From an uncultured virus (IMG/VR IMGVR_UViG_3300009110_000302) (taxonomy: Duplodnaviria; Heunggongvirae; Uroviricota; Caudoviricetes): a stretch of 64,000 nt of DNA. The stretch spans positions 1 to 64,000 of IMG/VR virus record IMGVR_UViG_3300009110_000302; one strand, given 5' to 3'. Shown one piece after another: positions 25,202 to 53,939 of this stretch. The translations under genes and the position numbers were made by a program. The notes beneath the pieces are model-generated. The model did no database searches and was not told the DNA's origin. It was given only the letters and a program-made list of their open reading frames with translations. How positions within the stretch are numbered: position 1 is the first letter of the stretch; each line of letters opens with the position of its first letter.

Positions 25202-25235
25202 ATTTATTTTTTAAAATTCTCTGAAACATTTTATA

Positions 25236-26576: not shown

Positions 26577-26580
26577 AACT

Positions 26581-27834: not shown

Positions 27835-27837
27835 TAA

Positions 27838-30204: not shown

Positions 30205-30235
30205 TATTAATAGATCAGACGTTCTCTCTCAGTCA

Positions 30236-31552
30236 TTGGATTTTTTCCCAGAAGAATGGGTGAAAAATTTCCCGTGGCTGTCTGGCGTCGACAATGGTGT
30301 GGCGGACCCCCAGTATAGGTTATTAAAATATTTATCCAGCATCCATGACGGAGTAACTATATTAGATTTTGGGACAAGCCAAGGTCATTCAGCTTTAGCT
30401 TTAGCTCAGAACAAAAGCAATAAAGTTATTACTTATGGCCTTAATCTTAATGGCGGGGCGGTTTCTCTTCTGGGCAAAGCTCCTAATGTTGAAATCGCAG
30501 CCCTTTCCGTCCAAGAAATAGAAGAGGAAGTGATTCTTTCTTCTTCATTCGTATTCTTGGATCTTGACCCTCATGATGGCATACAGGAGGCGGGGGTCAT
30601 TGAAAGACTAAAGTCGATTGGCTACAAGGGGTTTGTCGTGTGTGATGATATTAACTGGCCAGCAGGTATGAAAGAATGGTGGGATAGTGTCGACTTAAAT
30701 AAATATGACGTTACGGAAGTAGGACACGCTTCAGGAACAGGAATAATATCTTTTAGTAATGAAGAGTTCAATGTCATACAGGATAGAAAAAAGGATTATA
30801 ATTATTGCTTCACCGCCTTAGCGATAGGCAAAGAGTACGAAGATCTGTCTGTAAAGCGCTACAATTCCCTAAGAGAAAAAACTAAATCGTGTGATTTTCA
30901 TTTAACAGTCAATAATTCAGAACTGCAAGACTTGGGAGACAGGGCTTTCCTGAACGAGTTACATTTGGACAAATTTAGAGACGAGGGGAGGCCGCAGTTT
31001 GGTTGTTATTTAAATATGAAGTGTCTTGCTCTCAAAGCGACTTTAGAAAAATATTCTGGAAAGCATTATGATTATATAGTATACACAGATGGAGATTGGC
31101 AAATGCATGACAAATTTGAAGAAGAAAAAGTTTTTAAATGCTTTGATTTACTAGAAGAAAATGAAAATTTAGATTTCATTTACGAAAGACCCGGCACCGT
31201 TGGCGACCACAAAAAAACTCCCGACAATTTAAGGCAGGCGTGGGCTACGGTAAAAATTGAAGACTACAACCTTCGGGATCATGACCTTTGGGATGATGCG
31301 ATAATGCCCAATGAGCAGATTTATATATTTAAAAATAGTTGGAAATTTAAAATGTTTGTTCAAGAGTGGGAAAAATTTTTGTGGTATACCGTAGCGAATA
31401 ACATGGATAATTTTGGAGAGTGCTTCGAGACAGGAGTATCAGCTCTATTGGCGGGGATGAAAGGTACGTGGCATCCTTTTCATAGCGGTTCCGTATTAAG
31501 TCAGTGTTTTTATTTTTACTGTAGGAATGGGATACGCCATGAAAGATTTTAA
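30236..31552 (+). CDS. Methyltransferase-like domain fused to a GT-A-like domain
   Basis: ILDFGTSQGHSA, LDLDPHDG, DDI, GH.SGTG, then YTDGD. Paralog of 52001. The start may be the non-canonical codon at 30194. Confidence 0.65.
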   Translation: MDFFPEEWVKNFPWLSGVDNGVADPQYRLLKYLSSIHDGVTILDFGTSQGHSALALAQNKSNKVITYGLNLNGGAVSLLGKAPNVEIAALSVQEIEEEVILSSSFVFLDLDPHDGIQEAGVIERLKSIGYKGFVVCDDINWPAGMKEWWDSVDLNKYDVTEVGHASGTGIISFSNEEFNVIQDRKKDYNYCFTALAIGKEYEDLSVKRYNSLREKTKSCDFHLTVNNSELQDLGDRAFLNELHLDKFRDEGRPQFGCYLNMKCLALKATLEKYSGKHYDYIVYTDGDWQMHDKFEEEKVFKCFDLLEENENLDFIYERPGTVGDHKKTPDNLRQAWATVKIEDYNLRDHDLWDDAIMPNEQIYIFKNSWKFKMFVQEWEKFLWYTVANNMDNFGECFETGVSALLAGMKGTWHPFHSGSVLSQCFYFYCRNGIRHERF

Positions 31553-32252
31553 AGACAAAATAATTTCTTTTAGTCTGTATAATCACCCTTCTAAAGCGGG
31601 CGACCTAACTTATTACATTGGGGCTGAAAAAAATTTAAAGTTAAATAATCGTTTTTTACCTGATTGGAAAACGGTCATTTATTATCATAAAGACAGAATT
31701 GATGAGGAGTGGGTTCCTAAACTTGCTGATCTAGGAGCTTGTATGATTGAAGTGTCAGAAAACGAGCGTTTAAAGGGGGAGCTTTCAACTATGCAGGATA
31801 TGATGTGGAGACTTTTAAGCATTTATGAAGAAAATGTATGCATAATTAGAGACTTAGATAGTAGAATGACTCAGAGAGAAGCGAATTATATAAATGATTG
31901 GCTTAATTCCGAGTGTAAATATTTCATAATAAGGGATCATCCTTGGCACGCGTCAGTTCCCGGTGGCTTATTCGGGATTAAAGGGGCGGATAAAAAGCTT
32001 GAGGATCATATTTCTGATTTCTTAAAAAATAATGAGCTTGTTTGGGGATCAGACCAAGAAATGTTAGCCCTTTACAGAGAGAACAATATTGATGATAAAG
32101 ATTTATATTATTGTGGTTACGATGATCAAAAAAATTATATACCAAGAGATGATAAAGGTTTTTTCATAGGGGTACAGGTTGACGAGAACGATAAAATAAC
32201 TAAAGAGAATTCAATATTAGCATTAGAAATGTTAGAGGAGATGAACCTATGA
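31539..32252 (+). CDS. Putative glycosyltransferase, GT-A-like
   Basis: IISFSLY, MMWR, IIRDLDSR...RE, RDHP.H, DQ..L; lies in the glycan cluster. Confidence 0.6.
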   Translation: MKDFKDKIISFSLYNHPSKAGDLTYYIGAEKNLKLNNRFLPDWKTVIYYHKDRIDEEWVPKLADLGACMIEVSENERLKGELSTMQDMMWRLLSIYEENVCIIRDLDSRMTQREANYINDWLNSECKYFIIRDHPWHASVPGGLFGIKGADKKLEDHISDFLKNNELVWGSDQEMLALYRENNIDDKDLYYCGYDDQKNYIPRDDKGFFIGVQVDENDKITKENSILALEMLEEMNL

Positions 32253-32941
32253 TTAAAAATTGGAAATACGGGCCATGCTATGGAGCAGGAAGGCCCTTTA
32301 TAAAAGAATACATAAAAGAAAATAATTTTAATACTATAGACGTTGGTGCGTCAGCACGTTATTGGTCTTACCCCGAGTGTAAAGTCGTTGTGGATAGTTA
32401 TCACCCAAATTATTTTGCGCAAGCACTCGGCCGCCCAAATCCTAATTATCAAGATGTTTTATTTTTCGATTTAAATATCGAAGATGTGGACAGTTGGAAC
32501 GAGATATTAGAGTACGTAGACGATAATGATAAGTTCGATTTTTCGATTTGCTCACATACATTAGAGGATGTTTTCAATCCGATTGACCTCGCTCGGATGT
32601 TGGAAAAAGTATCACATCGAGGCTACATCGCAGTGCCTTCAAAATATGATGAACTTACAAACCTCTTTGGCCACCCTTACAGGGGTAACGCGCATCATAA
32701 GCAAATATTTGACGTTGTTGAGGATGAATTAGTTATATATCCTAAATTCTCTTGGATAGAAACGGATGGAAGAAGTGATAAAATTGTAGAAAATTCTTTG
32801 GGTCCTGAATTAGAATTGACATGGGAGGGGGAAATTCCGATAAAGGTATTTCCCTCGCTGCCGCCCAATCTCGCCGGCCATGGAGGTGATGAAGGATTAA
32901 TAAATAGATATTACCAAGAGCTAATGATGAAAAGAAAATAA
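32249..32941 (+). CDS. SAM-dependent methyltransferase-like protein
   Basis: IDVGA, FDFSICSHTLED, GYIAVPS. Confidence 0.65.
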   Translation: MIKNWKYGPCYGAGRPFIKEYIKENNFNTIDVGASARYWSYPECKVVVDSYHPNYFAQALGRPNPNYQDVLFFDLNIEDVDSWNEILEYVDDNDKFDFSICSHTLEDVFNPIDLARMLEKVSHRGYIAVPSKYDELTNLFGHPYRGNAHHKQIFDVVEDELVIYPKFSWIETDGRSDKIVENSLGPELELTWEGEIPIKVFPSLPPNLAGHGGDEGLINRYYQELMMKRK

Positions 32942-32948
32942 AAATATT

Positions 32949-34001
32949 ATGAAAACTATAAAAGTGTCTAGACAGGGGTTCGCTAACTTTGGGTGTCATA
33001 GTTGGCTTAGATATATTATGTTTGTTTTATCTAAAAAATACAACGTTATAATTGACGCCGTTAATCCAGATTTAATTTTGCAAACGAATTGGCAAGTTGA
33101 TTATAACGAGGTAGATCCTCAAACCAAAGAGTTACCTACAGATTTTAAACCAGAAGAAAATAAAAACATAAAATTCTTACGTGTTACAGGGGAAGCGGGT
33201 GCGGATTCCTTCGCACTTAAAGATGAGAATGTTTGGATTATGGACTATCAAAATCTTGATCACCCTAGACATTTAAGGCAACCGTCAGGAGCTTTTGATG
33301 TATGGACTATGTTTGACGAGGCTAGAGTGGTGGATTCTCCTTTGTCTTGGTTGACAGAAAAAAGAGATTATGAAAAAATTAAAGATAGAAATACGGGCCT
33401 CTGTTGCGTAACTCAAAATAGTAATAGTGACCTTAGGGCAAAAATATTTGATAAACTTAGTGAATATAAACAGGTTGTATCTTCTGGTGCTTGGAGAGGT
33501 AATGCGGCAGTAGAAGACAAAGACCAGAATGGAAACATATCAGCACGGAAATGGGGTGACAATCCTATATATAGGGGTAGACATGACGGTTTAGTTTATA
33601 AGGAAAAAATAGAATTTTCTAATAACTATAAGTTTTTCATGGCTATTCATTGGACAGATACAGACTATATTCTTCAAGAGAAAATTTATCATGGGTTTTT
33701 CTCAGGGTGCATACCCTTGTTTTATGGTAATAAATATATTTCTGAAGTGGATAAGTTTAATCCCGATTCTTTTATTAATCTTCATGATTATTGTTCTTCA
33801 GAACAAGGGAAAATACAAGATTGGAAAAATTATCAAGATATAGACCTTGATAAACTTTTAGAAGACGTGAAAGAGATTGATACTAATGAATCTTTACGTA
33901 AAAAATATATAGAGGCTCCTATATTCATAGACAATAAACTTCCGGATTATTATAGCTTCGATTACGTTTTAGACTTCTTAGAGAGAATGATAGAGAGTTA
34001 G
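32949..34001 (+). CDS. GT10 alpha-1,3/4-fucosyltransferase-like protein
   Basis: YK.V.S.G, KIEF..NYKF, YILQEKI, CIPLFYG, FNPDSFINLHD. Confidence 0.75.
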   Translation: MKTIKVSRQGFANFGCHSWLRYIMFVLSKKYNVIIDAVNPDLILQTNWQVDYNEVDPQTKELPTDFKPEENKNIKFLRVTGEAGADSFALKDENVWIMDYQNLDHPRHLRQPSGAFDVWTMFDEARVVDSPLSWLTEKRDYEKIKDRNTGLCCVTQNSNSDLRAKIFDKLSEYKQVVSSGAWRGNAAVEDKDQNGNISARKWGDNPIYRGRHDGLVYKEKIEFSNNYKFFMAIHWTDTDYILQEKIYHGFFSGCIPLFYGNKYISEVDKFNPDSFINLHDYCSSEQGKIQDWKNYQDIDLDKLLEDVKEIDTNESLRKKYIEAPIFIDNKLPDYYSFDYVLDFLERMIES

Positions 34002-34009
34002 CTTGGAGA

Positions 34010-35005
34010 ATGAACATTTTAATAACAGGAGTGGCGGGTCTTTTAGGCTCTAGATTAGCGGATTGGATAATAGAAAATACCGATAATAAAGTTATTGGTA
34101 TTGATGATTTAAGTGGTGGCTATATAGAAAACGTGAACCCAAAGGTCGAATTTCATGAATTTAATTTAATAGACTTAAATAAAGTCGATGAGATTTTTAA
34201 AAATAACCATATAGATATAGTCTATCACTTTGCGGCTTACGCTGCGGAAGGATTAAGTCCCTTTATTAGAAAATTCAATTATGAAAATAATTTGATTTCG
34301 TCTGTGAACTTAATTACAAGCAGTATAAAATATAATATATCCAGATTTGTATTTGCTAGCTCTATGGCTGTGTACGGAGATGAACATAAGCCCCCATTTG
34401 ACGAGGAGTTAACGTTAAGACCCATAGACCCCTATGGAGTAGCAAAGTATTCCGTAGAACAAGATTTAAAAATAGCGCATGAGCAGCACGGTTTAAACTA
34501 TACGATTGTTAGACCTCATAATTTTTACGGCGTTAATCAAAACATTTGGGATAAGTATAGAAACGTATTAGGTATCTGGATGTATCAAATCATGAACGGG
34601 ATGCGACCAACGATCTTTGGTGATGGCTCGCAGAAGAGAGCATTCAGCTACGTAGACGATTCAATTATCCCCCTTTGGAATGCCTCTCAGAAAGATGATT
34701 GCGTAGGCCATGTTATAAACCTAGGAGGAATAGAAGAGTGCTCTATACAGGAAGCCTGCAATACCGTGTTAAAAGTTACAGGGACCGAACTGAAGCCCTC
34801 TTACCATGAATACAGGCATGAAACTAAATATGCTTGGTCTACTTGGCGCAAATCCGCAGAATTACTTGATTTTAAATACGAGACAAGCCTAGAAGAGGGT
34901 CTTACGAAGACATGGGTTTGGGCTCAGGCTCAGCCCAATAGAGAAAGGTTCATTTGGCCCAGCTATGAATTAGAGAAAGGCGTTTACTCTTACTGGAAAA
35001 GATAA
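34010..35005 (+). CDS. NAD-dependent epimerase, UDP-glucose 4-epimerase-like
   Basis: TGVAGLLG, HFAAYAAEG, YGVAK, RPHN.YG. Confidence 0.9.
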   Translation: MNILITGVAGLLGSRLADWIIENTDNKVIGIDDLSGGYIENVNPKVEFHEFNLIDLNKVDEIFKNNHIDIVYHFAAYAAEGLSPFIRKFNYENNLISSVNLITSSIKYNISRFVFASSMAVYGDEHKPPFDEELTLRPIDPYGVAKYSVEQDLKIAHEQHGLNYTIVRPHNFYGVNQNIWDKYRNVLGIWMYQIMNGMRPTIFGDGSQKRAFSYVDDSIIPLWNASQKDDCVGHVINLGGIEECSIQEACNTVLKVTGTELKPSYHEYRHETKYAWSTWRKSAELLDFKYETSLEEGLTKTWVWAQAQPNRERFIWPSYELEKGVYSYWKR

Positions 35006-37545: not shown

Positions 37546-37573
37546 TTGCAAAATGATATTATAAATTTATAAT
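37546..37573 (+). promoter_or_regulatory. sigma70-like promoter, likely leaderless
   Basis: TTGCAA-N16-TATAAT; ATG 6 nt downstream. Confidence 0.65.
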
Positions 37574-37579
37574 ATATAA

Positions 37580-38137
37580 ATGAGGTTAGATCATATAGCT
37601 TACAGATCTAAAGATCGTAATAAGACCGCAGAATTCTTCGCGGACACCCTTGGTTATACAATAGGCACAGAGTTTCAGGTAAAGTTTGATGACGGAGGGA
37701 AAGCCGACTGTTTAGCCTTAGTTCCGCCAGAGAATAGAACTGAAGAAACTAACCTCTGGAGACTCGAGACCTATCTCTCCATGAACGAAATTGAAACGGA
37801 AAGTCCCGTAGAATATCATGCTCCACCTGAAATTTTTGTTAGTGACGGCCCTGAAGGGAGTATTGTGGGTGATTGGGTTGCCGATCGCGGTGGCGTTGGC
37901 GGTATTCATCACATCGCTTATCAAGTGGAAGATGTGGAAAGAACAATGAAGGAGTGGAAGGGCAAGGGGTATGCTGAATTTTATTCAGAAGAACCTATGA
38001 CTTGTCCCGGCCTTACTCAAGTTTTTACAAAACCATCCGAATTAACAGGAGTTATTTATGAGCTTATATCTAGAGAAGGTAAAGGGTTTTGCGAGCTTAA
38101 TGTTAAAGGACTTATGCAAAGCACTAAAGGAGAGTAA
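37580..38137 (+). CDS. VOC/glyoxalase-fold metalloenzyme resembling the HPPD C-terminal domain
   Basis: LDHIAY, GIHHIAYQV, QVFT, YELISR..GF...NV..LM.ST; His/His/Glu triad. Confidence 0.75.
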   Translation: MRLDHIAYRSKDRNKTAEFFADTLGYTIGTEFQVKFDDGGKADCLALVPPENRTEETNLWRLETYLSMNEIETESPVEYHAPPEIFVSDGPEGSIVGDWVADRGGVGGIHHIAYQVEDVERTMKEWKGKGYAEFYSEEPMTCPGLTQVFTKPSELTGVIYELISREGKGFCELNVKGLMQSTKGE

Positions 38138-38138
38138 C

Positions 38139-39668
38139 ATGAGAGATTTCGAAGGTAGAAATTACATAAACGGAGAGTGGCGAGCTACTTCCGAAATGTA
38201 TACAAAAATTAATCCGTCAACGGGTAAAGCTCAAGGGGCGTTTCCGTCAAGCGGCCCAAGTGAAGTTTCTAAAGCTGTACTGTCTGCGAGAAAAGCTTTT
38301 AAAAAATGGAGAAAGGTTAGCAGGTTTGTTCGTTCTGATTATATGAACAAGGTCGCTCAAATTATTGAAAGAGATAAAGAAAAGTTGGCTAAAATCATAT
38401 CTTTAGAAACGGGTAAAAATTATAATGAAAGCATCGCAGAGGTTAATGAGGCTTTGCATATGGCTCAATTTGCTTTCGGCTCTGGTCGTTATAGCCATGG
38501 AGAGGCAGTATCTTCAGAGATTGAAGATAAAGATGCTTACATGCTTAGGAAGCCTAAAGGTGTAATAGCTATCGTAACTCCTTTCAACTTTCCTCTGGCA
38601 ATAGGTATGTTTTGGAACGCTGCACCAGCATTGGTGGAAGGAAATACAATAGTAATTAAACCAAGTGAAGATGCTCCGATGTCAACTCAAGCGGCTGTTC
38701 AAATTTATGCGGAAGCTGGTATCCCACGTGGAGTCATTAATTTGGTGCATGGTGACGGTACTACTGGCAACCTTTTGGTTCATGATGATGTTGATCATAT
38801 TTGTTTTACTGGTAGTGCCGATGTCGGACAGCATATTCGTAAAGTGGCTGCAGAGTCTTGGCATAAGACTACCTCTTGTGAACTAGGCAGCAAATCTGCT
38901 TGCATCATTTTTGATGACGTTGAATTTAAATTAAGCATGGAGGCTGCGATCGCAAGCGCTTTTAAATTATCAGGGCAACGGTGTGTCTCTTCTGGTAGAA
39001 TGATAGTGCAAAGAACTATCTATAGCGAGTTCGCAAAAAGATTTGCGGAGGAGGCGGCAAAATTAAAGACAGGGAATCCATTCAAGTCCATGCTTGGCAC
39101 CTCAGGCTGCCCAGATGGTATGGTTTGGGAAGAGCTTGTGGCTGACGAAGACGTTTATTATGGTCCGATTATAAATGAGCAAGGGTTTTCTAAAATTAGG
39201 AGCATGAATAAAATGGTTATAGATGACCCAGAAGCCGAAGTCCTTTTAGCTCCAGCTTACACCGGAGACCATAAATCTTATTACTCTACCCCAATGGTAT
39301 ATAAAACCGAGTGGAGAGACGTAAAGTATTTAAAAAATGAGGTGTTTGGTCCTCACGTGGCGATTATCCCTTTTGATACGATGGAAGATGCGATTCGTAT
39401 TTATAACGATACAGATTACGGTCTTGCGGTTGGGATTTTAACTAACGATTTTAGAAAAGCGAGAGTTATGAGGGACGAATGTGACGCAGGTATGATCTAT
39501 TGGAATGGCGGGTCAATCGCAGCGGAATCTCACTTAGCTTTTGGAGGAGTTAAGAAGTCCGGAAACGGATTCCCAAGCGCGGCCAGAACTTTTAGAGCAG
39601 TTACTCATGAAATAAGCTGGACTGTGAACCATGCAGATGCTCTAACTTTTCCTCAGGGGATGAAGTGA
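38139..39668 (+). CDS. NAD-dependent aldehyde dehydrogenase
   Basis: TPFNFP, KPSE, FTGS, ELGSK, SGQRC, EVFGP, FGGVKKSG. Start at 38139 after AAGGAG. Confidence 0.93.
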   Translation: MRDFEGRNYINGEWRATSEMYTKINPSTGKAQGAFPSSGPSEVSKAVLSARKAFKKWRKVSRFVRSDYMNKVAQIIERDKEKLAKIISLETGKNYNESIAEVNEALHMAQFAFGSGRYSHGEAVSSEIEDKDAYMLRKPKGVIAIVTPFNFPLAIGMFWNAAPALVEGNTIVIKPSEDAPMSTQAAVQIYAEAGIPRGVINLVHGDGTTGNLLVHDDVDHICFTGSADVGQHIRKVAAESWHKTTSCELGSKSACIIFDDVEFKLSMEAAIASAFKLSGQRCVSSGRMIVQRTIYSEFAKRFAEEAAKLKTGNPFKSMLGTSGCPDGMVWEELVADEDVYYGPIINEQGFSKIRSMNKMVIDDPEAEVLLAPAYTGDHKSYYSTPMVYKTEWRDVKYLKNEVFGPHVAIIPFDTMEDAIRIYNDTDYGLAVGILTNDFRKARVMRDECDAGMIYWNGGSIAAESHLAFGGVKKSGNGFPSAARTFRAVTHEISWTVNHADALTFPQGMK

Positions 39669-40114
39669 TGAATGGAAAGGGAGATAAACCAAGACCTATG
39701 AATTTCAAAAGGTATCATCAAAATTATGATGCTATTTTTAGTAAAAAAAAAGGAAAGAAAATGGAATTCCATATAGCGACAAAAGGAACGAAAGAGGATC
39801 AAAAACCTGTCGTCCTCGTAGACATTGACGAAACTATTTGTTTTTACTCTGGTAATCGTAGATACGACCTAGCTGAACCGAGTAAAGAAAACATCGGCAA
39901 AATAAACAAGATGTATGACGAAGGGTGGAAAGTTATATATTGGACAGCTAGAGGTTCCGTATCAAAAAAAGATTATTATCAATACACTTGGGATCAGTTG
40001 GAGTCTTGGGGCTGTAAGTTCCATGACTTATCTACAGGTACAGGAGGAACACACCCAAAACCTAATTATGATTTAGTTATTGACGATAAAGCAAAAAGAA
40101 TAGAGGAAATATAA
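39665..40114 (+). CDS. Small HAD phosphatase with an N-terminal GKGDKPRP peptide
   Basis: VDIDETIC, WTARG, KP.YD..IDDKA. Confidence 0.8.
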   Translation: MMNGKGDKPRPMNFKRYHQNYDAIFSKKKGKKMEFHIATKGTKEDQKPVVLVDIDETICFYSGNRRYDLAEPSKENIGKINKMYDEGWKVIYWTARGSVSKKDYYQYTWDQLESWGCKFHDLSTGTGGTHPKPNYDLVIDDKAKRIEEI

Positions 40115-40116
40115 TT

Positions 40117-40221
40117 ATGGCTAACAAAGAAAAGAGAAAAAAAGAAAAAAAGAAACCTGCTAAAAAGACACCAGCGGAAAAAAGAAAAGAGAAGAGAGAA
40201 AAGAAAAGAAGAGGCAAGTAA
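40117..40221 (+). CDS. 34-aa very basic peptide
   Basis: MANKEKRKKEKKKPAKKTPAEKRKEKREKKRRGK fills the gap between its neighbours. Confidence 0.6.
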   Translation: MANKEKRKKEKKKPAKKTPAEKRKEKREKKRRGK

Positions 40222-41316
40222 ATGAGAGCTTATGTTCTAGGAGTCGGCAGGATGGGAACAGCCATTGCTTGGGCGATGGATAAATTAGGTTTTGAAGTGA
40301 CAGGTATGGACACTAACCCTGACGCCGCAAACAATATGACAGGCTCTTTTTTTGTTGTTGATGACGCGGATGATATTTGTAAAGGCATCGTAGCAAACGG
40401 TCCAAGGCCAGACATTGTTATTAGCAGCTTGCCTTACCACCAAACGGAAGTGGTAGGCAAGTGGTGCGTAGATAACGAAGTACGCTATTGCGACTTAGGC
40501 GGCAGAGTAGATGTCTCGAAAAATATTAATGATCACGCCGAGCAGTTTGCGACTCGACCAGTTTTCACAGATTTAGGCTTAGCTCCCGGCTGGGTAAATA
40601 TATTAGCCGAAGAGGGATGCAGGAAATTCCATGGCTCTGCTGAAGAAGTTAAAATGATGGTCGGGGGCTTACCCGACTATTTAGAGAGCTCGAATAATCC
40701 ATTGCGTTACGCACTTACTTGGTCTGTTGATGGATTGATCAATGAATATAGAGACGATTGCCTTATCCTTGAAGACGGAGAAGTAAAAACTGTAAAAGGA
40801 ATGTCTGGGGTAGAACAGATAGAGGGCGAAAAGTTTGGACCCATGGAGGCTTTTTATACAAGTGGTGGCGCGTCACATTCAATTCACGACATGCAACGAA
40901 GAGGAGTTAAGAATTGCTCCTATAAAACCATAAGGTACAGGGGTCATGGAGATATGGTTAGATTTTTGATTAGAGATTGCGATCTAGACGATGGAGCGTT
41001 AACTAAAATTTTCCGAGAAGGTTGCGGTACGGTAGATAAAGACGAGGTGTTTATCGTAGCAGAAGTGAAGGGCGGGGATAAAACTTGGAGACAGGAGAAG
41101 GTGATCAAATCTGACGAACAATTTTCAGCCATGCAAAAAGCTACGGCGTTTTCCATTTCCTCTGTAGCAGCGATTATGGCTCAAGGAAAGCTAGAGGGGA
41201 ACATGGAACAGCGTAGAGACTATTGGACTCAGTACCCAGCGGCCTTATCTTATGATAATGTGCCTTTTAATGAATTTAATAATAACTTAGAAAGATTATT
41301 GACTAGTGCTTTATAA
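40222..41316 (+). CDS. Saccharopine dehydrogenase / lysine 6-dehydrogenase family
   Basis: GVGRMG, YCDLGG, GLAPGW.N, GGLP, WSVDGLINEY, YKTIRY.GH. Confidence 0.88.
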   Translation: MRAYVLGVGRMGTAIAWAMDKLGFEVTGMDTNPDAANNMTGSFFVVDDADDICKGIVANGPRPDIVISSLPYHQTEVVGKWCVDNEVRYCDLGGRVDVSKNINDHAEQFATRPVFTDLGLAPGWVNILAEEGCRKFHGSAEEVKMMVGGLPDYLESSNNPLRYALTWSVDGLINEYRDDCLILEDGEVKTVKGMSGVEQIEGEKFGPMEAFYTSGGASHSIHDMQRRGVKNCSYKTIRYRGHGDMVRFLIRDCDLDDGALTKIFREGCGTVDKDEVFIVAEVKGGDKTWRQEKVIKSDEQFSAMQKATAFSISSVAAIMAQGKLEGNMEQRRDYWTQYPAALSYDNVPFNEFNNNLERLLTSAL

Positions 41317-41333: not shown

Positions 41334-41945
41334 ATGATTAATTATTGCGATTTCTCAGAAAAAGAACTAATAAGTAAATCTGTAGAAGGTGAGAAAAAAG
41401 CCTTTGAAGAACTCTTGTCTAGAAATAAAGGCAGGGTAGAGGGGTGGATTTTATCATTCACCAAGCAGTCTGAAATTGTTCAGGATATTTTTCAAATAAC
41501 TTCTCTAAAAGCTTGGAGATTCTTAGATAAATTTAGAGGTGATTGCAAATTCAGCACTTGGATGTGCAATATTGCTAGAAATAGTTATTATGATTTTTAT
41601 AGGGCGAAGCAAAGACGTCCAGAGATTTCTTTAGATGCCCTATTAGAGGAACAGAAGAAGAATGGAGGAGCTTTTGAGTTTTATAATTGTGAGACAGAAG
41701 AGCATCCGAGAAATAAAGAACAAGATTCAAATTATTATTTAACTGAAATAAGTAAAAAATTGGAGTTTTTAGACCCAAGACATAGAGACCCATTGATAAT
41801 GTTTGTTGGAGAAGGCTTAGAGTATTCTGAAATTGCGGAGAAGTTGAATTGTCCGGTGGGGACTGTAATGTCTAGAATTTTTTACGCTAGAAAAAAAGCC
41901 CAAAAGATTTTGAGTCCTTTGAGAAATGAGCTTATCACAAAATAG
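41334..41945 (+). CDS. ECF (RpoE-like) RNA polymerase sigma factor
   Basis: Region 2 DIFQ...KAWR...FRGDCKFSTW..IARN; region 4 YSEIAEKLNCPVGTVMSRIFYAR. Confidence 0.92.
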   Translation: MINYCDFSEKELISKSVEGEKKAFEELLSRNKGRVEGWILSFTKQSEIVQDIFQITSLKAWRFLDKFRGDCKFSTWMCNIARNSYYDFYRAKQRRPEISLDALLEEQKKNGGAFEFYNCETEEHPRNKEQDSNYYLTEISKKLEFLDPRHRDPLIMFVGEGLEYSEIAEKLNCPVGTVMSRIFYARKKAQKILSPLRNELITK

Positions 41946-42418: not shown

Positions 42419-42589
42419 ATGGCTAAAAAACACAGAAAATATTTTAGGACTAAAAAAGGCAAGAAAGCTTTAAGAAAAGCGCGTAAAGCTTATGACGAGA
42501 GAGACCCCGAAAGAAGAAGACGTCAGAAAAGAGAGTACATGAGGAGGAAAAGGCAAAAAGAAAGAGAGCAAAGAGAGGAAATAGAATGA
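42419..42589 (+). CDS. 56-aa Arg/Lys-rich protein
   Basis: MAKKHRKYFRTKKGKKALRKARKAYDERDPERRRRQKREYMRRKR...; stop overlaps the next ATG. Confidence 0.6.
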   Translation: MAKKHRKYFRTKKGKKALRKARKAYDERDPERRRRQKREYMRRKRQKEREQREEIE

Positions 42590-43500
42590 ATGTCCTTTTA
42601 ACATCTGTGGGCTGTATGGGTTATGTGGGCTTAATAAAAGCTTTTCAAAAAGAGGAGTGTAAAGTTTTTGGCGTAGATTGCTCCAGTGATGCTGTCGGTT
42701 TTAGTTTTTGTGATGGCTCCGCAGTAGTCCCTCACGGAGATAACGAAGCTTACACCACTGAATTATTAAAAGTCTGTAAGGATTATAATATAGAATTAAT
42801 TGTGCCTTCTTCTGATAACGAAATATTAAAAGTGGCAGAGGACAGGCCGATGTTTGAAGGCTTGGGCGTGTCGGTATTATTGCCTTCTGACAACTCTTTG
42901 AGGATTTGTAATGATAAGAGTCATTTTTATGAGCACTTATTTGGGTGGGGCATACTCCATCCGGAAGTTCGTAACCCTTTAGACGCAGAATTTCCAGCTA
43001 TACTAAAACCGAAAGTGGGAAAAGGCTCCACGGGTGTTCGTGTTATCACGAAGATGGATCAGTTAAAACCGTGGAGGGAGTGGAATACAAATTGCATTCT
43101 TCAAGATTTTATAAAAGGGGATGAATATACCGTAGATATTCTAGCGAATAAGAGTTCTACAATTTTGTCTATGGTTCAAAGAAAAAGAACTCGCGTAGAA
43201 TCTGGAATTAGCGTGGCGGCGGAAGTGGTAGAGGATGAGCATGGTAGAGCCATTTGTAGCCAGCTAAACGATAGATTACAGATGCGCGGAATGTACTGTG
43301 TTCAATACATCAAGAACTCAAACGGCATATATGTATTAGAGATTAACCCTAGATTTGGCGGGGGGAGCGTTTTATCTTTAAGAGCTGACCCTACAATTAT
43401 TTTAAATTATTTAAACATTGCTCAAGATAAGCCTATAGAGGTCTTATGCGATCCAGCGAAAATAAAAATGAGGCGTTATTATGCGGAAGTCTTCGAATAA
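42586..43500 (+). CDS. ATP-grasp ligase, sugar-modification type
   Basis: ICNDK, ILKPKVGKGS, QDFIKGDEYTVD, EINPRFGGG. Confidence 0.88.
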   Translation: MNVLLTSVGCMGYVGLIKAFQKEECKVFGVDCSSDAVGFSFCDGSAVVPHGDNEAYTTELLKVCKDYNIELIVPSSDNEILKVAEDRPMFEGLGVSVLLPSDNSLRICNDKSHFYEHLFGWGILHPEVRNPLDAEFPAILKPKVGKGSTGVRVITKMDQLKPWREWNTNCILQDFIKGDEYTVDILANKSSTILSMVQRKRTRVESGISVAAEVVEDEHGRAICSQLNDRLQMRGMYCVQYIKNSNGIYVLEINPRFGGGSVLSLRADPTIILNYLNIAQDKPIEVLCDPAKIKMRRYYAEVFE

Positions 43501-44191
43501 AGTACTAGTAATTAGCCCTCATTCTGACGATAGTGAATATGGCTTAGGAGGTACTATTATTCGCCATTTGCAGGAAGGGGATTATGTCCATATAGGGTTA
43601 GTTGTCGCGGATTCTGTAGATTTCGTTCACGTGGACAGCGCTATTGTCCCTAGCGATGTCAGGGTTAGAGAATTTATGGAGGTTATACAAGCTTATTCCA
43701 AATATGGGAATATAAGGTCTAGCATATGGATGACAGACGAGACGAATGATTATGGTTTTGGTTTGGAAAGCAGGCTCGACGCGATACCCATTCGAGACGT
43801 AGTGAATTATGTAGAGAAAGAGATGAAAAGCCTTAAACCTAACGTATTATATTATCCGAGTAAAAGTCACCATCAGGATCATCGCGTGGTTTACGAAGCT
43901 TGCTCGACTGCTTGTAGGCCGACCCAGCCGTTTTTACCAGACGAAATATATCTTTACGAGTTGCCCACCTCTTTTTGGAATAACAATAAAGAGAGATATT
44001 TCGTGCCAAATACTTATGTTTCAATAGATATTGACAAGAAATCAGAAGTGGTGGGGCTTCATAAGTCCCAAATAAGACCTCAAGACAATAAGTTAAGTGC
44101 TGAGTCTATAATAGATCAAGCTAAAGTTAGAGGAGATGAGGTCGGGGAGAGGTATTGTGAGGCTTTTGAGTTAATAAGAAGTAAAAGATGA
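43481..44191 (+). CDS. PIG-L family N-deacetylase
   Basis: SPHSDD..YGLGGT, HQDH, HKSQ, EAF. Confidence 0.9.
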   Translation: MRKSSNKVLVISPHSDDSEYGLGGTIIRHLQEGDYVHIGLVVADSVDFVHVDSAIVPSDVRVREFMEVIQAYSKYGNIRSSIWMTDETNDYGFGLESRLDAIPIRDVVNYVEKEMKSLKPNVLYYPSKSHHQDHRVVYEACSTACRPTQPFLPDEIYLYELPTSFWNNNKERYFVPNTYVSIDIDKKSEVVGLHKSQIRPQDNKLSAESIIDQAKVRGDEVGERYCEAFELIRSKR

Positions 44192-44904
44192 AAATAAATT
44201 ACTTATTTGATATAGACGGAACCTTGACTCCCCCTCGAAGTAAAATGACTAGTGAGTTTTCTTTCTTTTTTTTAAATTGGATGACAGGCAGAAACATTTA
44301 CTTGGTGACGGGTAGCGATAGGGAAAAAATTATACAACAAGTTCCAAACAGTATATTAGTTAGGTGCAAGGGTGTTTTTTCATCTATGGCTAACGAATTC
44401 AGAAGTGAGGATCAGTTGATTTATAGTAATGATTGGAATCCTTCCCCTAAGTTAATTAAAGACTTAACAATGATTCGTGCAAGCTCAAACTATGATCTGA
44501 AAAAAGAGAATTACATAGAGTACAGGAAGGGCATGGTTAATTTTTCGGTAGCCGGTAGAGAATCTACCATAAAACAAAGGCGGAGATATTCGGCTTGGGA
44601 TAAAGAGAATAATGAAAGAGAAGGTATCGTAAAAACCTTAAGAGCTAAATATAAAAGGCTTGAATTTTGTCTAGGCGGAGAAATAAGCATAGATATACAG
44701 CCGAAAGGCAAGAATAAGTCTCAAGCGAGCAAATGGATTCGTAAATATGAAGGTGGAAAAATAGTATTTTTTGGAGATAAATGCATGGAAGGCGGGAATG
44801 ATTATGATATTGTTGAAGATATCAAAAAAAACAAGAAGGACAAGTATTTTCAGGTTGACAATTTTTTAACTACCCGTAAACTATTAGAAGCGGATGAAGA
44901 ATAA
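44188..44904 (+). CDS. HAD-IIB phosphomannomutase, eukaryotic PMM-like
   Basis: FDIDGTLTPPR, VTGSD, IE.R.GMVNFS..GR, GGEISIDI, FFGD..GGND. Confidence 0.85.
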   Translation: MKINYLFDIDGTLTPPRSKMTSEFSFFFLNWMTGRNIYLVTGSDREKIIQQVPNSILVRCKGVFSSMANEFRSEDQLIYSNDWNPSPKLIKDLTMIRASSNYDLKKENYIEYRKGMVNFSVAGRESTIKQRRRYSAWDKENNEREGIVKTLRAKYKRLEFCLGGEISIDIQPKGKNKSQASKWIRKYEGGKIVFFGDKCMEGGNDYDIVEDIKKNKKDKYFQVDNFLTTRKLLEADEE

Positions 44905-45100
44905 GCAACAAGCTTTAGCTCTGTTGGAAGATTTAATAGAGGCTTCTTCTAATATAGATGAATTACATAAGAAAAAATCTATACAGGAAGGCAAAGCGGT
45001 AAGAGCGGTGGGCGAGAGTTGGCTGTTGTTCCATTTAAGAGTGTTGCGCGACTTAATTAACGAGGAAGAAGCTCATGGACAAAAAGAAACTAAAAACTAA
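44894..45100 (+). CDS. Hypothetical protein
   Basis: Overlapping co-directional ORF. Confidence 0.55.
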   Translation: MKNKQQALALLEDLIEASSNIDELHKKKSIQEGKAVRAVGESWLLFHLRVLRDLINEEEAHGQKETKN

Positions 45101-45617
45101 AGACGGTAGCGAATTCACTGTTTTTTATTTAAAAACAGAGCCCAAATGGGGAAAAGATAAATTCGGACACAATGCCGATGAGAACAAATACTATTTAACG
45201 CCCGAAGAGGCGGAACCTATAGTGCAAGATAATTACGCTTCTTGGGAAATAAAAGAGGCAGGGCTGTGGGACATTTACGGTCACCTTTATAAAGACCAAG
45301 AAAAGTCTTTAGAGGGTGACTTTTTTGACTTTCCTTTCCCCTCTTTTGGTTTACCTTTCTCCAAGAAAGAAGAAGTCGTGATAGACGATAGAATAGAGTC
45401 GGATGCAGTTTTAACCCCTTTAAAGGGCTGTGTATATAGATATTCACAAGATATGCGTCTTTATAGGTACGTCTCAGAAAAAATGGTAGATCAGGAGCCC
45501 CTTTGGGAGCTTGCAGATAACAAGAAGAATATTTACCTTGTGCCAGCGGAAGATTGCTATCTTTATGCCGTTAACCAAAACGAGCTAGATGAATTTTTGA
45601 GAAAGGAGACTGGCTGA
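45075..45617 (+). CDS. Hypothetical protein
   Basis: ORF from the track. Confidence 0.55.
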   Translation: MDKKKLKTKDGSEFTVFYLKTEPKWGKDKFGHNADENKYYLTPEEAEPIVQDNYASWEIKEAGLWDIYGHLYKDQEKSLEGDFFDFPFPSFGLPFSKKEEVVIDDRIESDAVLTPLKGCVYRYSQDMRLYRYVSEKMVDQEPLWELADNKKNIYLVPAEDCYLYAVNQNELDEFLRKETG

Positions 45618-45618
45618 C

Positions 45619-46269
45619 ATGGCTTTTTTAGATGTTAATAACCTACTCTCTACGCCCAAGTGGCGACATATTAGCGGTCAAGGAATGTGTCACAGACCTC
45701 ACAAAAGGCTTATTTTGCAAAGTTTAGTTTCCGTTTTAGAGTCTCATGTAGAAGGGGATATAGTCGAGTTAGGTTGTCACGAGGGCGGACTAAGCAAATA
45801 TCTCAAACTCGTATTAGATTTATACGACGTGTACCCGCATCGTAAGAAGCTTTATCTTTATGATAGCTTTGAAGGACTCCCAACCAGTCGCCGTGCTCAC
45901 GAAGCGGGATGGGAGGGGATGGAGACAACAGTAGAGGAAGTCCTCCTATCTTTTGAAATTAATAATATCTCCCCCCCATATAAAATACATAAAGGTTGGT
46001 TCAAAGAACTTAAACCGGAGGACTTGCCCGAAAAAATCGCTTTCGCTTTTTATGATGGTGATTTATATGAGAGTATTTACGATAGCTTTGAAAAGACTTA
46101 CCACTTGGTTTCCGAAGGGGGTACGATAGTAATTCACGATTACGGAGACCCTAGGTTTAAAGGGGTCGAAGAGGCTTGTCTCGATTTTTTAGGGGACAAA
46201 GCCCAAGATATTGTAATGTCCGATGAGTCAGCCGAATGCCGGTTCGTAGGAGTTTTACAAAAAAAATAA
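45619..46269 (+). CDS. TylF/MycF-family sugar O-methyltransferase
   Basis: GDIVELGC..G, YDSFEGLP, KGWF, DGDLYES, GG.IVIHDY. Confidence 0.88.
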   Translation: MAFLDVNNLLSTPKWRHISGQGMCHRPHKRLILQSLVSVLESHVEGDIVELGCHEGGLSKYLKLVLDLYDVYPHRKKLYLYDSFEGLPTSRRAHEAGWEGMETTVEEVLLSFEINNISPPYKIHKGWFKELKPEDLPEKIAFAFYDGDLYESIYDSFEKTYHLVSEGGTIVIHDYGDPRFKGVEEACLDFLGDKAQDIVMSDESAECRFVGVLQKK

Positions 46270-46273
46270 TATA

Positions 46274-46390
46274 ATGAAAAATAAAAAATACAACATTGAT
46301 CATAAGAATAATAAATTCGATGATAATCGCTTATCGAACCTTAAACTTATTAAGATTGAACCAAATAAACCAAAGAAGCCTTTAAAATGA
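46274..46390 (+). pseudogene. 38-aa remnant of an HNH endonuclease
   Basis: IDHKNNKFDDNRLSNL matches the HNH core seen at 63187 (VDHLNGNKRDWRLENL). Confidence 0.5.
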
Positions 46391-46617
46391 AAAAATCCTT
46401 ATATAAAGCCTTAGAATCCAGATACAAAGCCGAACTGCATGAAGCAGAAGCCACCCTTGAGGTATATTTCAACAATGCCGTTGGAATTGGCGAACATCCT
46501 CAAATGGTAGAAGAAATGGCAAAACAGTTAGAGAAAATGTCCAACGCGGAAGACTGTTTACTGACCTTGGAAGAAAACTTCAAAGAGGAGGAAGAGTACA
46601 GGTGTAAGCCTTTATGA
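46387..46617 (+). CDS. Small phage protein (N.VGIGEHP motif)
   Basis: Motif recalled from marine T4-like phage hypotheticals (not searched). Confidence 0.7.
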   Translation: MKKSLYKALESRYKAELHEAEATLEVYFNNAVGIGEHPQMVEEMAKQLEKMSNAEDCLLTLEENFKEEEEYRCKPL

Positions 46618-46618
46618 A

Positions 46619-46807
46619 ATGCCGTTGTCTCACAAGGAATTTATTGAAGCTTTAACAGAGATAGAACAGGAATACATAAAATTAAGAAGTAGTGACTCTT
46701 CACACGAAAGAAGAACAGCCCAATTAGCTTTGCTTGTTTTAAATAGACTGAAGAGAAGAATAACAAAGAAGATAATTGAGAAACATGGAAATCAAACTAA
46801 AACATAA
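46619..46807 (+). CDS. Small hypothetical protein
   Basis: ORF with GTGTAA 11 nt upstream. Confidence 0.5.
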
Positions 46808-46997
46808 AGACGGCAGATCAATGCCTCTCGAAAGAGCTTTGAGAATTCTTAAGAAGAAGCTTGATAAAGAGGGCACTATTAAAGAGGTTAGAAAACGTAG
46901 ATTTTACGAGAAGAAAAGCGTTAAAAAATACAGGAAAAAGAAAAACGCTAAATATGCCGCTAAGATGCAAGCTAAAGAAAACGAACTTTGGCGTTGA
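46785..46997 (+). CDS. rpsU: Ribosomal protein bS21
   Basis: [33 protein letters not shown] matches the bS21 pattern. Start placed at 46785. Confidence 0.88.
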
Positions 46998-47022
46998 CTT
47001 TGTTTTAACCTTCATGTAATAT
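46994..47022 (+). promoter_or_regulatory. sigma70-like promoter, likely leaderless
   Basis: TTGACT-N17-TAATAT; ATG 6 nt downstream. Confidence 0.6.
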
Positions 47023-47028
47023 AAATAC

Positions 47029-47574
47029 ATGGAGAACAAAAATGTTTTAGATAAGACTCGTACCTATTTAGTGGGACATATGCAATACTCCGATGGTAGA
47101 GATTGGAGAGAGCATGTCGAAAAAGAGTTAGAGTCTTTAAACATCACAGTCTTTAATCCTTATAAAAAACCTTTCGTAAAGGATGTCAATGAAGACGAAA
47201 CTGCTCGAACAAGAATGTCGGAAGACATGGTTAATGGTTACTACAGTGATGTAGCCGAAAGGATGAGCACGGTTCGTAGTTACGATCTTAACCTAGTAGA
47301 TAGATCTGATTTTATTATAGCTCATTTACTTCCAGATGTTGCAAGCTGGGGCAGCGCAGAAGAAATTGTTACCGCAGTAAGAATGAAGAAACCTATATTC
47401 ATTTCAATGGAAGGCGGAAAATCCCAAACACCTCTTTGGATTATGGGTATGCTTCCGCATCATTATATTTATGATAGTGTTGATGATGTTTTATCAATGA
47501 TTCACCAAATAAACGACGGAAATAAAGCTATTGATAGCGATAGGTGGAGGCTTTTAAGAAAGGAGTTACGATAA
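47029..47574 (+). CDS. Nucleoside 2-deoxyribosyltransferase-like protein
   Basis: YLVG.M, DWR, FNPY, DL..VD.SD, SWGSAEE, KPIF. Confidence 0.75.
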   Translation: MENKNVLDKTRTYLVGHMQYSDGRDWREHVEKELESLNITVFNPYKKPFVKDVNEDETARTRMSEDMVNGYYSDVAERMSTVRSYDLNLVDRSDFIIAHLLPDVASWGSAEEIVTAVRMKKPIFISMEGGKSQTPLWIMGMLPHHYIYDSVDDVLSMIHQINDGNKAIDSDRWRLLRKELR

Positions 47575-47577
47575 TCT

Positions 47578-47718
47578 ATGTTACCCGATTGGCTATATAA
47601 AATAGAGAGGAAGTTAGATGATTGTAATCATATCATGGAGCTAGGTAGAACCTGTTTAGCTCTTTGCACTTTAGTGCTTCAAGTTGTAATACTGTTAAAA
47701 TTATTTAATGTGATTTGA
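47578..47718 (+). CDS. 46-aa membrane peptide
   Basis: MLPDWLYKIERKLDDCNHIMELGRTCLALCTLVLQVVILLKLFNVI; stop overlaps the next ATG. Confidence 0.55.
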   Translation: MLPDWLYKIERKLDDCNHIMELGRTCLALCTLVLQVVILLKLFNVI

Positions 47719-48125
47719 TGAAAACGGGTTTCGTAGCTAGTTGTTTTGATATGCTTCATGCGGGACATTGTCTTATGTTAAAAGACGCGTCTTTTCAATG
47801 TGATCATTTAGTAGCAGCACTTCAGACAGATCCGACAATAGATCGTCCGGAAAAAAATAGGCCAATACAGTCTTTCCCAGAAAGAATGCTTCAGCTTGAA
47901 GCCGTCCGTTATATTGATGAAATTGTTGTTTACAATACTGAAGAAGAATTAGTTGAGTGGCTAAAAGTGATTAAGCCAGATGTCCGTATTCTGGGTAGTG
48001 ACTACAAAGATAAGTTTTATTATACGGGCAAAGATTTAGAAGAGCACTTAGGTATAGAGATATATTTTCATGATAGAAATTATCATTGGTCTACCAGCGA
48101 GTTAAGGGAAAGGGTATTAAAGTGA
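47718..48125 (+). CDS. Glycerol-3-phosphate cytidylyltransferase-like protein (TagD family)
   Basis: [31 protein letters not shown]. Confidence 0.88.
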
Positions 48126-49282
48126 GAATTGAGCCTGAAATGAAGTTAGATTATAAGGACGTTCTTTTGCGTCCTAAGCGTTCAGAGTTAACGTCTCGTA
48201 AGGACGTTAATTTGATGCGTGAGTTTACCTTTAAGAACGCTGGAGGGGAAGGGTCAGACCCTAAAGCGTATAGCTGGAAGGGCATCCCTATTGTGGCGGC
48301 AAATATGGATACCGTGGGGACTTTTGAAACGGCCAAGGCTCTTGCCCAACATCATATGTTGACTTGTATCAGTAAGCATAGTGATGTAGATAGGTGGATT
48401 CATAAGCTGTGTGGCTATGGGGTTTACAAAACCAAAGAGCAAAAGAAAGCTAATGAAGGAAGCTGGAAATATGAACGAGGAGCAAAGGATTGGCAAAGCA
48501 GAATTTATGACCATATTTGTCCTTCTATCGGTATTAAATATGATCCAAATAAAATGGATGATATAGATTATTTAAACAGTATTCAGTGGAACTTTTATCA
48601 TAATAGGTTCGTATGTATTGATGCAGCGAATGGATATACATCAAGGTTTTGTGATTTTATTAAACGAGTCAGAGAAGAACACCCCGCTCTTATTATCATA
48701 GCGGGAAATGTTGTCACTGGCGAAATGACAGAGGAGATATTATTAAGTGGAGCAGATATTGTTAAAGTGGGTATTGGCGGCGGGTCTGTTTGCACTACTC
48801 GTATACAAACTGGTGTGGGTTATCCTCAACTCAGCGCAGTCATTGAATGCGCGGATGCTGCTCATGGGATTGGTGGGCATATTATGGCTGACGGTGGGTG
48901 TGTATCTGCTGGCGACGTGGCCAAAGCCTTTTGTGCTGGTGCTGATTTTGTTATGCTGGGCGGGATGTTGGCGGGTCATACTGAATCAGAAGGGCAAGAG
49001 GAAGAAGTAGACGGAGAGAAATATAAAACATTTTATGGAATGAGTTCCGACACGGCCATGAACAAATATCATGGCGGAGTTGCGAACTATCGCTCCTCAG
49101 AAGGAAAAACAATAAGGATAAAACATCGTGGACTTATTAAGCATACTGTGGAACATATTCTTGGTGGCTTGCGTAGTGCTTGTACTTATATTGGTGCTAA
49201 GGAGTTAAAAGATATGCCTAAGTGCGCTACCTTTATAAGAGTTAGTCAGCAATCAAACGAAGTGTTTGGAAAAAATATTTAA
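48122..49282 (+). CDS. guaC: GMP reductase
   Basis: [63 protein letters not shown] start at 48122. Confidence 0.93.
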
Positions 49283-49900
49283 ATGGGCGGTTATACTAAT
49301 CATAAATATTACAATAGCAATATAAGAGGTTCCGCTTGGAATAGGAGTATTTCTAAGGGTTCTAGATCTAACGGTTTTCTACCTAAAGATCAATACATTG
49401 CGAATTTAAAAGCGGGTAATAAATGGGATAATTACGCTTCTTATTACAAGAGCCCAGAGTGGAAAAGTAAAAGACTCAAGATAATAGAAAAAAATAACAA
49501 TACTTGCGAAAGATGCTATAGGGTTTTCCCTTCGGAAGAGTTAGACGTACACCATCAACGATATAGTGTGCGTGTTGGTGAAGATGATGAGGCGGATTTA
49601 GAATGTTTATGTAGTAATTGTCATATGCTACACAATGAAGTATGTGATATAGCAGGTGTCTATAAAGGAGGTGAAGCTCTTTTCATAAAACCTGATATGA
49701 AAGGGAGAATTGCGAGAGCTATGTATCAATATGCGCCTTGGATGTTTGAAGATGTTGATTTCGATCCCGATTGGGACTATTTAGATGATTTAGATTATGA
49801 TATAGTACTTAAAAAAATGAAGACTTTCCTTGGGAAATGGATGATGAACGTACCACAAGAAGACAATGTTCCCGATAAGGATTATTTAGATGATTTCTAA
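49283..49900 (+). CDS. HNH endonuclease-domain protein
   Basis: EWK..R...CERC...VHH..Y...LCSNCH..H. Confidence 0.8.
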   Translation: MGGYTNHKYYNSNIRGSAWNRSISKGSRSNGFLPKDQYIANLKAGNKWDNYASYYKSPEWKSKRLKIIEKNNNTCERCYRVFPSEELDVHHQRYSVRVGEDDEADLECLCSNCHMLHNEVCDIAGVYKGGEALFIKPDMKGRIARAMYQYAPWMFEDVDFDPDWDYLDDLDYDIVLKKMKTFLGKWMMNVPQEDNVPDKDYLDDF

Positions 49901-49945
49901 TAAAATAAATTATATTTAATTTTTAATAAAACTATAATAAATAGT

Positions 49946-51020: not shown

Positions 51021-51139
51021 AAAAACTAGAAAAAACCAAGGATTTGTTTTTATTAGCTTTTTGGGGCACCGCTTATCTCTTAAAAGCTATAGTTGAGATT
51101 CCTTACTTGTGGATCAAATCGTTATTTGATAAAAAATGA
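51017..51139 (+). CDS. 40-aa membrane peptide
   Basis: MKKLEKTKDLFLLAFWGTAYLLKAIVEIPYLWIKSLFDKK; ATGA overlaps at both ends. Confidence 0.55.
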   Translation: MKKLEKTKDLFLLAFWGTAYLLKAIVEIPYLWIKSLFDKK

Positions 51140-51917: not shown

Positions 51918-52004
51918 ATGATACCACTCATAGCAGTAGGAGTAGCGATAGGAATAACGATATTAATATGTATCTGGTTAACTAAGTTCATAGAGCTAAA
52001 ATGA
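51918..52004 (+). CDS. 28-aa hydrophobic peptide
   Basis: MIPLIAVGVAIGITILICIWLTKFIELK fills the gap. Confidence 0.45.
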   Translation: MIPLIAVGVAIGITILICIWLTKFIELK

Positions 52005-52567: not shown

Positions 52568-52570
52568 AAA

Positions 52571-52744: not shown

Positions 52745-52748
52745 TAAA

Positions 52749-53936: not shown

Positions 53937-53939
53937 TTT

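Follow-up and report, generated by a model that had tools for sequence, protein, structure and literature searches.

A window of 64,000 nucleotides, the first 64 kb of the 117,535-bp IMG/VR record IMGVR_UViG_3300009110_000302 (an uncultured Caudoviricetes virus, 69% complete), was analysed with regard to five abutting plus-strand open reading frames (ORFs) at 37580-41316. The phage origin of the record is borne out by its genes for terminase, portal, PhoH, DnaB, primase and DNA polymerase III alpha. Judging from its encoded proteins, the cassette most likely breaks down lysine, and perhaps ornithine, in the infected cell by means of a half-size iron oxygenase. To the full five-step form of this proposal, a mobile virus-borne module of lysine catabolism, we give a probability of roughly 0.55. 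The genes, with successive spacings of 1, -1, 2 and 0 nt, are the following:

37580-38137, plus strand: VOC protein, 185 aa, single domain (Glyoxalase/Glyoxalase_4)
38139-39668, plus strand: aldehyde dehydrogenase (ALDH), 509 aa (Aldedh), after a 1-nt gap
39668-40114, plus strand: HAD-type phosphatase, 148 aa (or 117 aa from 39761), DIDET motif (HAD-like, PHROG 1238), overlapping ALDH by 1 nt
40117-40221, plus strand: Lys/Arg-rich basic peptide, 34 aa, after a 2-nt gap
40222-41316, plus strand: saccharopine-dehydrogenase-like oxidoreductase (SDH), 364 aa (Sacchrp_dh_C and Sacchrp_dh_NADP), no gap

An earlier interpretation made from the DNA letters (the sequence-only reading) had listed the genes in this order, and all five were indeed found abutting on one strand. 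The ORF finder's ALDH start, 38058, falls within the VOC gene, and ALDH was taken from 38139.

A conserved viral cassette

To describe the distribution of the cassette, 82 loci were compared, namely the best 80 of 94 IMG/VR hits and two GenBank huge phages. A metagenome set, overlapping with the former, comprised the best 80 of 487 hits, and 46 of 50 viral records, mostly fragments, were examined as a whole. VOC relatives numbered 1,471 among 1,489 candidates. Among the 82 loci, ALDH was present in 56, SDH in 40, both in 39 and neither in 25; when identical VOCs were collapsed, the values were 49 for ALDH, 37 for SDH and 36 for both out of 74. In the gene-neighbourhood analysis proposed earlier, ALDH came directly after VOC in 53 of the 56 ALDH-bearing loci. 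Likewise, the ORF after VOC was an ALDH in 68 of 78 metagenome loci. On the level of whole records, ALDH was found in 40 of 46, often distant from VOC in the huge phages.

Because flanks and inserted genes vary freely, VOC and ALDH can be regarded as the core and SDH as a frequent third part, while HAD and the basic peptide are variable passengers. The sequence-only reading had counted the latter two into the module; they adjoin it here, but they are not fixed parts of it (HAD in 32/82 loci). As a whole, the cassette is conserved and mobile, with VOC and ALDH as its core. The VOC family is almost exclusively viral, its Atlas clusters being 77-100% viral. PHROGs held no family for VOC or SDH, and our literature searches found no description of such a viral cassette.

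Some further occurrences concern VOC-like proteins elsewhere. Atlas look-alikes of VOC (37580-38134) include an HGLS (PF07063) cluster of 110 giant-virus proteins (score 0.91), single-domain VOCs of 162-167 aa from Pseudomonadota, and chorismate mutase-VOC fusions of Actinomycetota. Two Bacteroidota genomes contain a stand-alone VOC (L027:6001-6552; L028:6001-6546) and no PF07063 match, one of them with an ALDH7-like gene elsewhere; VOC may therefore stand in for HglS there.

Predicted enzymes of the cassette

The VOC protein is best explained, from fold and residues, as a stand-alone catalytic domain of the type found in 4-hydroxyphenylpyruvate dioxygenase (HPPD), hydroxymandelate synthase (HMS) and HglS, and thus as a predicted Fe(II) 2-oxoacid dioxygenase/decarboxylase. 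The His/His/Glu triad and HPPD/HglS-style ending that had been pointed out before could be located precisely: the metal triad consists of His5, His111 and Glu161, as defined for HglS in PMC7286885, and the ending GFCELNVKGLMQST at residues 169-182 forms the GF..N..L..ST helix. Among 129 relatives, His5 was kept in 127, His111 in 128, Glu161 in 129 and Arg9 in 128. Arg9 lies four residues after the first His and aligns with the DH.A.R of rice FLO7; an Arg at this position was absent from the controls (HPPD 0/5, methylmalonyl-CoA epimerase (MMCE) 0/5). Gln147 takes the position of the substrate-binding Gln of HPPD/HMS. VOC combines three features of the HPPD/HMS catalytic domain, namely the fold with its C-terminal helix, the facial triad and the substrate-binding Gln. 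It is single-domain, without the two-domain architecture of HPPD/HMS (no search was made for longer, fused versions), and with 25.8 bits it missed the cut-off of 277 on the HPPD/HMS family TIGR01263.

Regarding size, the earlier estimate of about half the usual length holds for HPPD (359-407 aa) but not for the fetched HglS-family proteins (266-321 aa), of which VOC has 58-70%. In comparison to HglS/DUF1338 (PF07063; Pseudomonas putida PP_5260, rice FLO7, PDB 6w1k), the phage protein is without the N-terminal helices and inserts, has a Glu where HglS has Arg/Lys in the P-x-IF motif, has His-His instead of Asn-His, and belongs to an almost only viral family. In comparison to the C-terminal catalytic domain of HMS/HPPD (PDB 3zgj, 2r5v, 1cjx), it is without the N-terminal VOC domain, Arg9 replaces the HPPD residue, and no aromatic-pathway neighbours were seen around it. 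The suggestion of a possibly new single-domain 2-oxoacid dioxygenase is consequently upheld for the type of domain, while we infer its substrate and reaction.

ALDH is a predicted amino-acid semialdehyde dehydrogenase of either the five- or the six-carbon series. Its catalytic residues are Cys282 and Glu248, and the catalytic motifs were intact in 56/56 copies. According to an excerpt of PMC11362210, ALDH7 contacts aminoadipate through Glu121, Arg301, Thr303, Gly461-Ala462, Phe168, Trp175 and Phe468. The phage counterparts, motif-mapped through ALDH7-like proteins, are Glu104, Arg281, Ser284, Ala461-Ala462, Phe151 and Trp159 in 56/56 copies and Phe468 in 55. Identity to HglS-adjacent ALDHs was 27-29%.

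In the case of SDH, a lysine-6-dehydrogenase-like, NAD-type oxidoreductase is predicted. An Asp at the end of strand 2 of a Rossmann fold is of the NAD type, and SDH has Asp30 at this position (kept in 157/159 relatives). The best PDB match was Pyrococcus horikoshii PH1688 (3abi), with an E-value of 3.1e-15 over residues 1-322. Carboxyspermidine dehydrogenase carries a His-Glu-Glu active-site triad that is absent from 3abi, a lysine 6-dehydrogenase, as a passage of PMC10413350 describes. SDH contains EAFYTSGG and no HEE; TSGG was invariant among 159 relatives, with HEE anywhere in 6 of them. This speaks against an identity as carboxyspermidine dehydrogenase, and the assignment to the lysine 6-dehydrogenases in the sequence-only reading was strengthened by the closeness to PH1688, which lacks the triad as well, at low identity. 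SDH did not match the family model of lysine 6-dehydrogenase.

Proposed route and its alternatives

More insight on possible substrates came from genes that are exchanged in related phages. In 11 of the 82 loci, an arginine-dihydrolase-like gene and a class-III aminotransferase lie right after ALDH, 8 of these without a nearby SDH. One representative aminotransferase scored 473.7 bits as L-lysine 6-transaminase (LAT; cut-off 520.8), followed by 213.9 bits for the next family and 164.9 bits for ornithine aminotransferase. Whole records contained LAT in 11 of 46, SDH in 24 and both in one (Fisher p 0.0014), a value that overstates the exclusion because LAT carriers fall into about two lineages, most of the records are fragmentary, and two loci with both genes belong to the four records outside the 46. 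Lysine 6-aminotransferase and lysine 6-dehydrogenase both yield aminoadipate semialdehyde (excerpt of PMC9854754), and replacement of one by the other is therefore what a lysine pathway predicts. Bacterial DUF1338 genes also adjoin LAT and ALDH genes, as far as the excerpt of 10.1101/450254 goes. The LAT-like gene, ALDH and VOC of the sister phages thus repeat the layout of actinobacterial loci with LAT (TIGR03251), P6C (piperideine-6-carboxylate) dehydrogenase and DUF1338, except that the sister-phage LAT is below cut-off and comes with an arginine-dihydrolase-like gene, and that LAT is absent from the present genome. The predicted product could be oxidised by a D-2-hydroxyacid dehydrogenase, whose gene immediately precedes VOC in two metagenome loci, forms part of the cassette in one viral locus, and is full-length in 3/46 records.

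Genes of arginine, ornithine and proline metabolism accompany the module as well. The arginine-dihydrolase-like gene was found in 10/46 records and between ALDH and LAT in 11/11 linked LAT loci, with matches of 217-255 bits, about half the cut-off of 450. Proline dehydrogenase was found in 10/46 records and an ornithine-cyclodeaminase-family gene in 8/46, in some relatives beside VOC. Both occur in the present genome, unlinked to the cassette:

60470-61312, plus strand: proline-dehydrogenase-like gene, adjoining the cassette in some relatives
61293-62207, plus strand: ornithine-cyclodeaminase/mu-crystallin-family gene, near the cassette in some relatives

In two metagenome loci, proline dehydrogenase, D-2-hydroxyacid dehydrogenase, VOC and ALDH are contiguous. 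These genes point to a convergence of arginine, ornithine and proline on pyrroline-5-carboxylate (P5C), which ALDH could take to glutamate. The co-occurrence may partly reflect lineage, because the comparison was confined to VOC-bearing phages.

Altogether, the following route is proposed. SDH with NAD+, or LAT in other phage lineages, would oxidatively deaminate or transaminate the epsilon-amine of lysine to aminoadipate semialdehyde/P6C, which ALDH would oxidise to 2-aminoadipate. A host aminotransferase would form 2-oxoadipate; no gene for a 2-aminoadipate aminotransferase was found in the contig, which is incomplete and whose second half was not family-scanned. The VOC barrel would hold Fe(II) through His5, His111 and Glu161, with Arg9 binding the distal carboxylate, and, to judge from fold and residues, convert 2-oxoadipate and O2 to D-2-hydroxyglutarate and CO2. 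The return to 2-oxoglutarate would fall to a D-2-hydroxyacid dehydrogenase, which a few relatives encode themselves and which the host would supply in the other cases. Probably ALDH also takes P5C derived from ornithine or proline; basic amino acids would then converge on this one enzyme, delivering 2-oxoglutarate/glutamate, NADH and ammonia from host protein during infection. A shared funnel with ALDH as hub and VOC as lysine-specific exit is the simplest joint reading of these observations. The lysine degradation module of the sequence-only reading thus gains from the kinship of SDH to PH1688 and from LAT in the place of SDH, with every substrate still inferred; its restriction to lysine had left the arginine, ornithine and proline genes that travel with the module out of account.

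Several results weigh against the lysine route. In the case of VOC, no PF07063 match was obtained at E <= 0.01, and the profile-profile match to HglS (7 members; probability 83.8, E 7.9e-6) was weak and below those to MMCE and HPPD. MMCE was the top match by phmmer, hmmsearch, NCBIfam and Foldseek E-value. The Arg four residues after the first His is not exclusive to HglS, because HVAYR occurs in PDB 9u42, a VOC of 182 aa under the title homogentisate dioxygenase. ALDH reached 266.6 of 730 bits on the P6C dehydrogenase/ALDH7 model NF050084, and is not a member of that family. Its ‘diagnostic’ Glu and Arg are common to 18/18 planctomycete ALDHs, and no SDH, LAT or HglS gene was found within about 1.5 kb of these. 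SDH is 27-39% identical to cellular relatives, so that its substrate is not fixed by descent. No LAT-like gene in the 46 records exceeded the family cut-off, 3 of the 11 linked LAT loci also hold SDH, LAT carriers represent about two lineages of a quick tree among mostly fragmentary records, and an arginine-dihydrolase-like gene accompanies LAT in 9 of 11 records. Finally, VOC was without an ALDH match in 6/46 records, two of them 98-100% complete, and full-length close VOC relatives occurred in 2/23 genome loci, both bacterial and both stand-alone.

The most credible alternative, which we nevertheless consider unlikely, is a five-carbon series from arginine over ornithine and glutamate semialdehyde/P5C to glutamate, with P5C reached by the SDH-like dehydrogenase, the LAT-like transaminase, or cyclodeaminase and proline dehydrogenase, and with VOC acting on 2-oxoglutarate or another dicarboxylic 2-oxoacid. 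The arginine and proline genes described above argue for it, as does the acceptance of ornithine by a fungal LAT and a lysine cyclodeaminase (passage in PMC9854754). It is opposed by the transaminase, far nearer to LAT than to ornithine aminotransferase, by the half-cut-off dihydrolase matches, and by HglS, the one enzyme with these residues to have been characterised, which requires 2-oxoadipate and does not turn over 2-oxoglutarate. Moreover, with glutamate as the end of an ornithine route, no known function is left for VOC despite its tight linkage, and a new reaction would be needed. A more inventive variant, rather improbable in our view, would be a funnel for basic amino acids built by phages from non-orthologous parts, with two reactions not described so far. 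SDH would be a dehydrogenase of terminal amines that uses ornithine, or both ornithine and lysine, and VOC, at 145-185 aa, would be the smallest 2-oxoacid dioxygenase of the two-substrate type; by acting on 2-oxoglutarate or another new substrate, it would lower the carbon/nitrogen signal of the host during infection.

There is a slim chance that VOC is a non-redox isomerase, MMCE- or glyoxalase-like, with a four-ligand site of His5, Glu84, His111 and Glu161 and either an acyl-CoA substrate or a role in aldehyde detoxification beside ALDH. The metal site of MMCE has four ligands, including a Gln/Glu on strand 4. MMCE (PDB 1jc4, 6wf6), a monomeric VOC of two modules whose His/His/Glu occupy the same positions, is the nearest protein by sequence and close in size, and hhalign pairs Glu84 with the strand-4 Glu. 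However, VOC scored 48.7 bits on TIGR03081 (MMCE; cut-off 114.95), and MMCE alignments end at residue 166-168, short of the conserved C-terminal helix common to HPPD/HMS/HglS, which MMCE lacks together with the Arg. Glu84 is substituted in 17/129 relatives (Asp 10, Gln 2, Arg 2, Lys, Tyr and Gly 1 each), whereas Phe86 is invariant; the register of the HglS motif PRIFISEL, strand symmetry in the model and this conservation place Phe86, rather than Glu84, probably at the position of the fourth ligand. The Foldseek comparison suggested earlier was divided, with E-values ranking MMCE first and the best structural fits going to HMS/HPPD. Since MMCE tops the sequence searches, the objection that VOC is an epimerase, which the sequence-only reading had itself raised, is weakened but not removed. 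Least weight is given to a biosynthetic or protective module making aminoadipate/pipecolate-type osmolytes or a 2-hydroxyacid for phage glycans, or with VOC acting on an aromatic or branched 2-oxoacid like HMS/HPPD. In this direction point the many glycosylation genes around the cassette, the structural fits to aromatic-substrate enzymes, and Ruegeria pomeroyi, which under salt uses its lysine dehydrogenase route to produce aminoadipate as an osmolyte (excerpt of PMC4334477). By analogy to its pair of lysdh (SPO0234) and aasadh (SPO0235), which resembles the phage pairing except that the phage ALDH is not of the ALDH7 type, an osmolyte role of the first two steps is possible. Such a role needs no VOC, though, the cassette lies beside helicase/primase genes and not glycan genes in many relatives, and the Arg of VOC is absent from the HPPD and MMCE controls.

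Every step of the preferred lysine route has a known cellular counterpart; what is new is that the genes are viral, that the ALDH is non-orthologous, and that the predicted oxygenase stands alone at half the size. If this holds true, common uncultured aquatic phages, given the number of VOC relatives, bring their own amino-acid catabolism into the host, in a module that surveys of auxiliary genes would miss because its genes are labelled ‘glyoxalase’ and ‘saccharopine dehydrogenase’. In that case, VOC would add a fourth branch to the HPPD/HMS/HglS oxygenases, a minimal one intermediate between VOC proteins of epimerase size and the larger enzymes, and its small size lends itself to direct work on structure and mechanism. 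The exchange of LAT and dehydrogenase, together with the arginine and proline genes, yields clear substrate predictions.

Transcription and accompanying genes

The sequence-only reading had placed one promoter before VOC:

37546-37573, plus strand: candidate sigma-70-like promoter, TTGCAA-16-TATAAT, 10/12 match, 6 nt before the VOC ATG (leaderless-like)

The match is present, but chance alone would give 13.8 such sites in the 6-kb region, where 15 were counted. The candidate is plausible because sites of at least 9/12 within 60 nt upstream were found at 24/82 VOC genes and 3/40 SDH genes. The five genes are likely co-transcribed, judging from their layout. The 3' end of the operon is undefined, since no terminator-like site was found 3' of SDH and an extracytoplasmic-function (ECF) sigma gene (41334-41945) starts 17 nt after it. 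A second sigma-like ORF, judged from its N-terminal sequence alone, lies at contig position 70421-71263.

Regarding the passengers, the first 31 or so residues of HAD match short peptides in 13/162 other loci, and HAD may therefore start at 39761. The 31-aa peptide MNGKG..PRP..Y..NYD.IF (39668-39760), in frame with HAD, precedes a different enzyme in one locus, as a small mobile module. Copies of the 34-aa basic peptide, 71-90% identical, were found in 12/162 loci, a match that its low complexity may inflate; it is possibly nucleic-acid binding, and a role in the pathway is unlikely. A ClpP-family protease gene lies between ALDH and HAD in 9/82 loci (L104:5821-6585 and 8 others). Insertions between ALDH and SDH include a class II fructose-bisphosphatase or an aldolase-like ORF, the latter by the look of its sequence alone (L129:9012-10034; L127:10582-11580).

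Elsewhere in the window, a histidine-decarboxylase-like gene (489.9 bits, cut-off 305) heads the group at 59181-62207, followed by the proline-dehydrogenase-like and ornithine-cyclodeaminase-family genes; such a gene was also near the cassette in 3 metagenome loci. Many glycan genes occupy 17992-35005 and 42586-58149 (glycosyltransferases, NDP-sugar epimerases, phosphomannomutase, TylF methylase, ATP-grasp and deacetylase, GlmS). Neither Pfam nor PHROG gave a match for a 2,584-aa ORF at 2124-9878. The PHP domain, the 3'-5' exonuclease and the catalytic part of DNA polymerase III alpha are split into separate ORFs (13373-17995), with a cupin between them.

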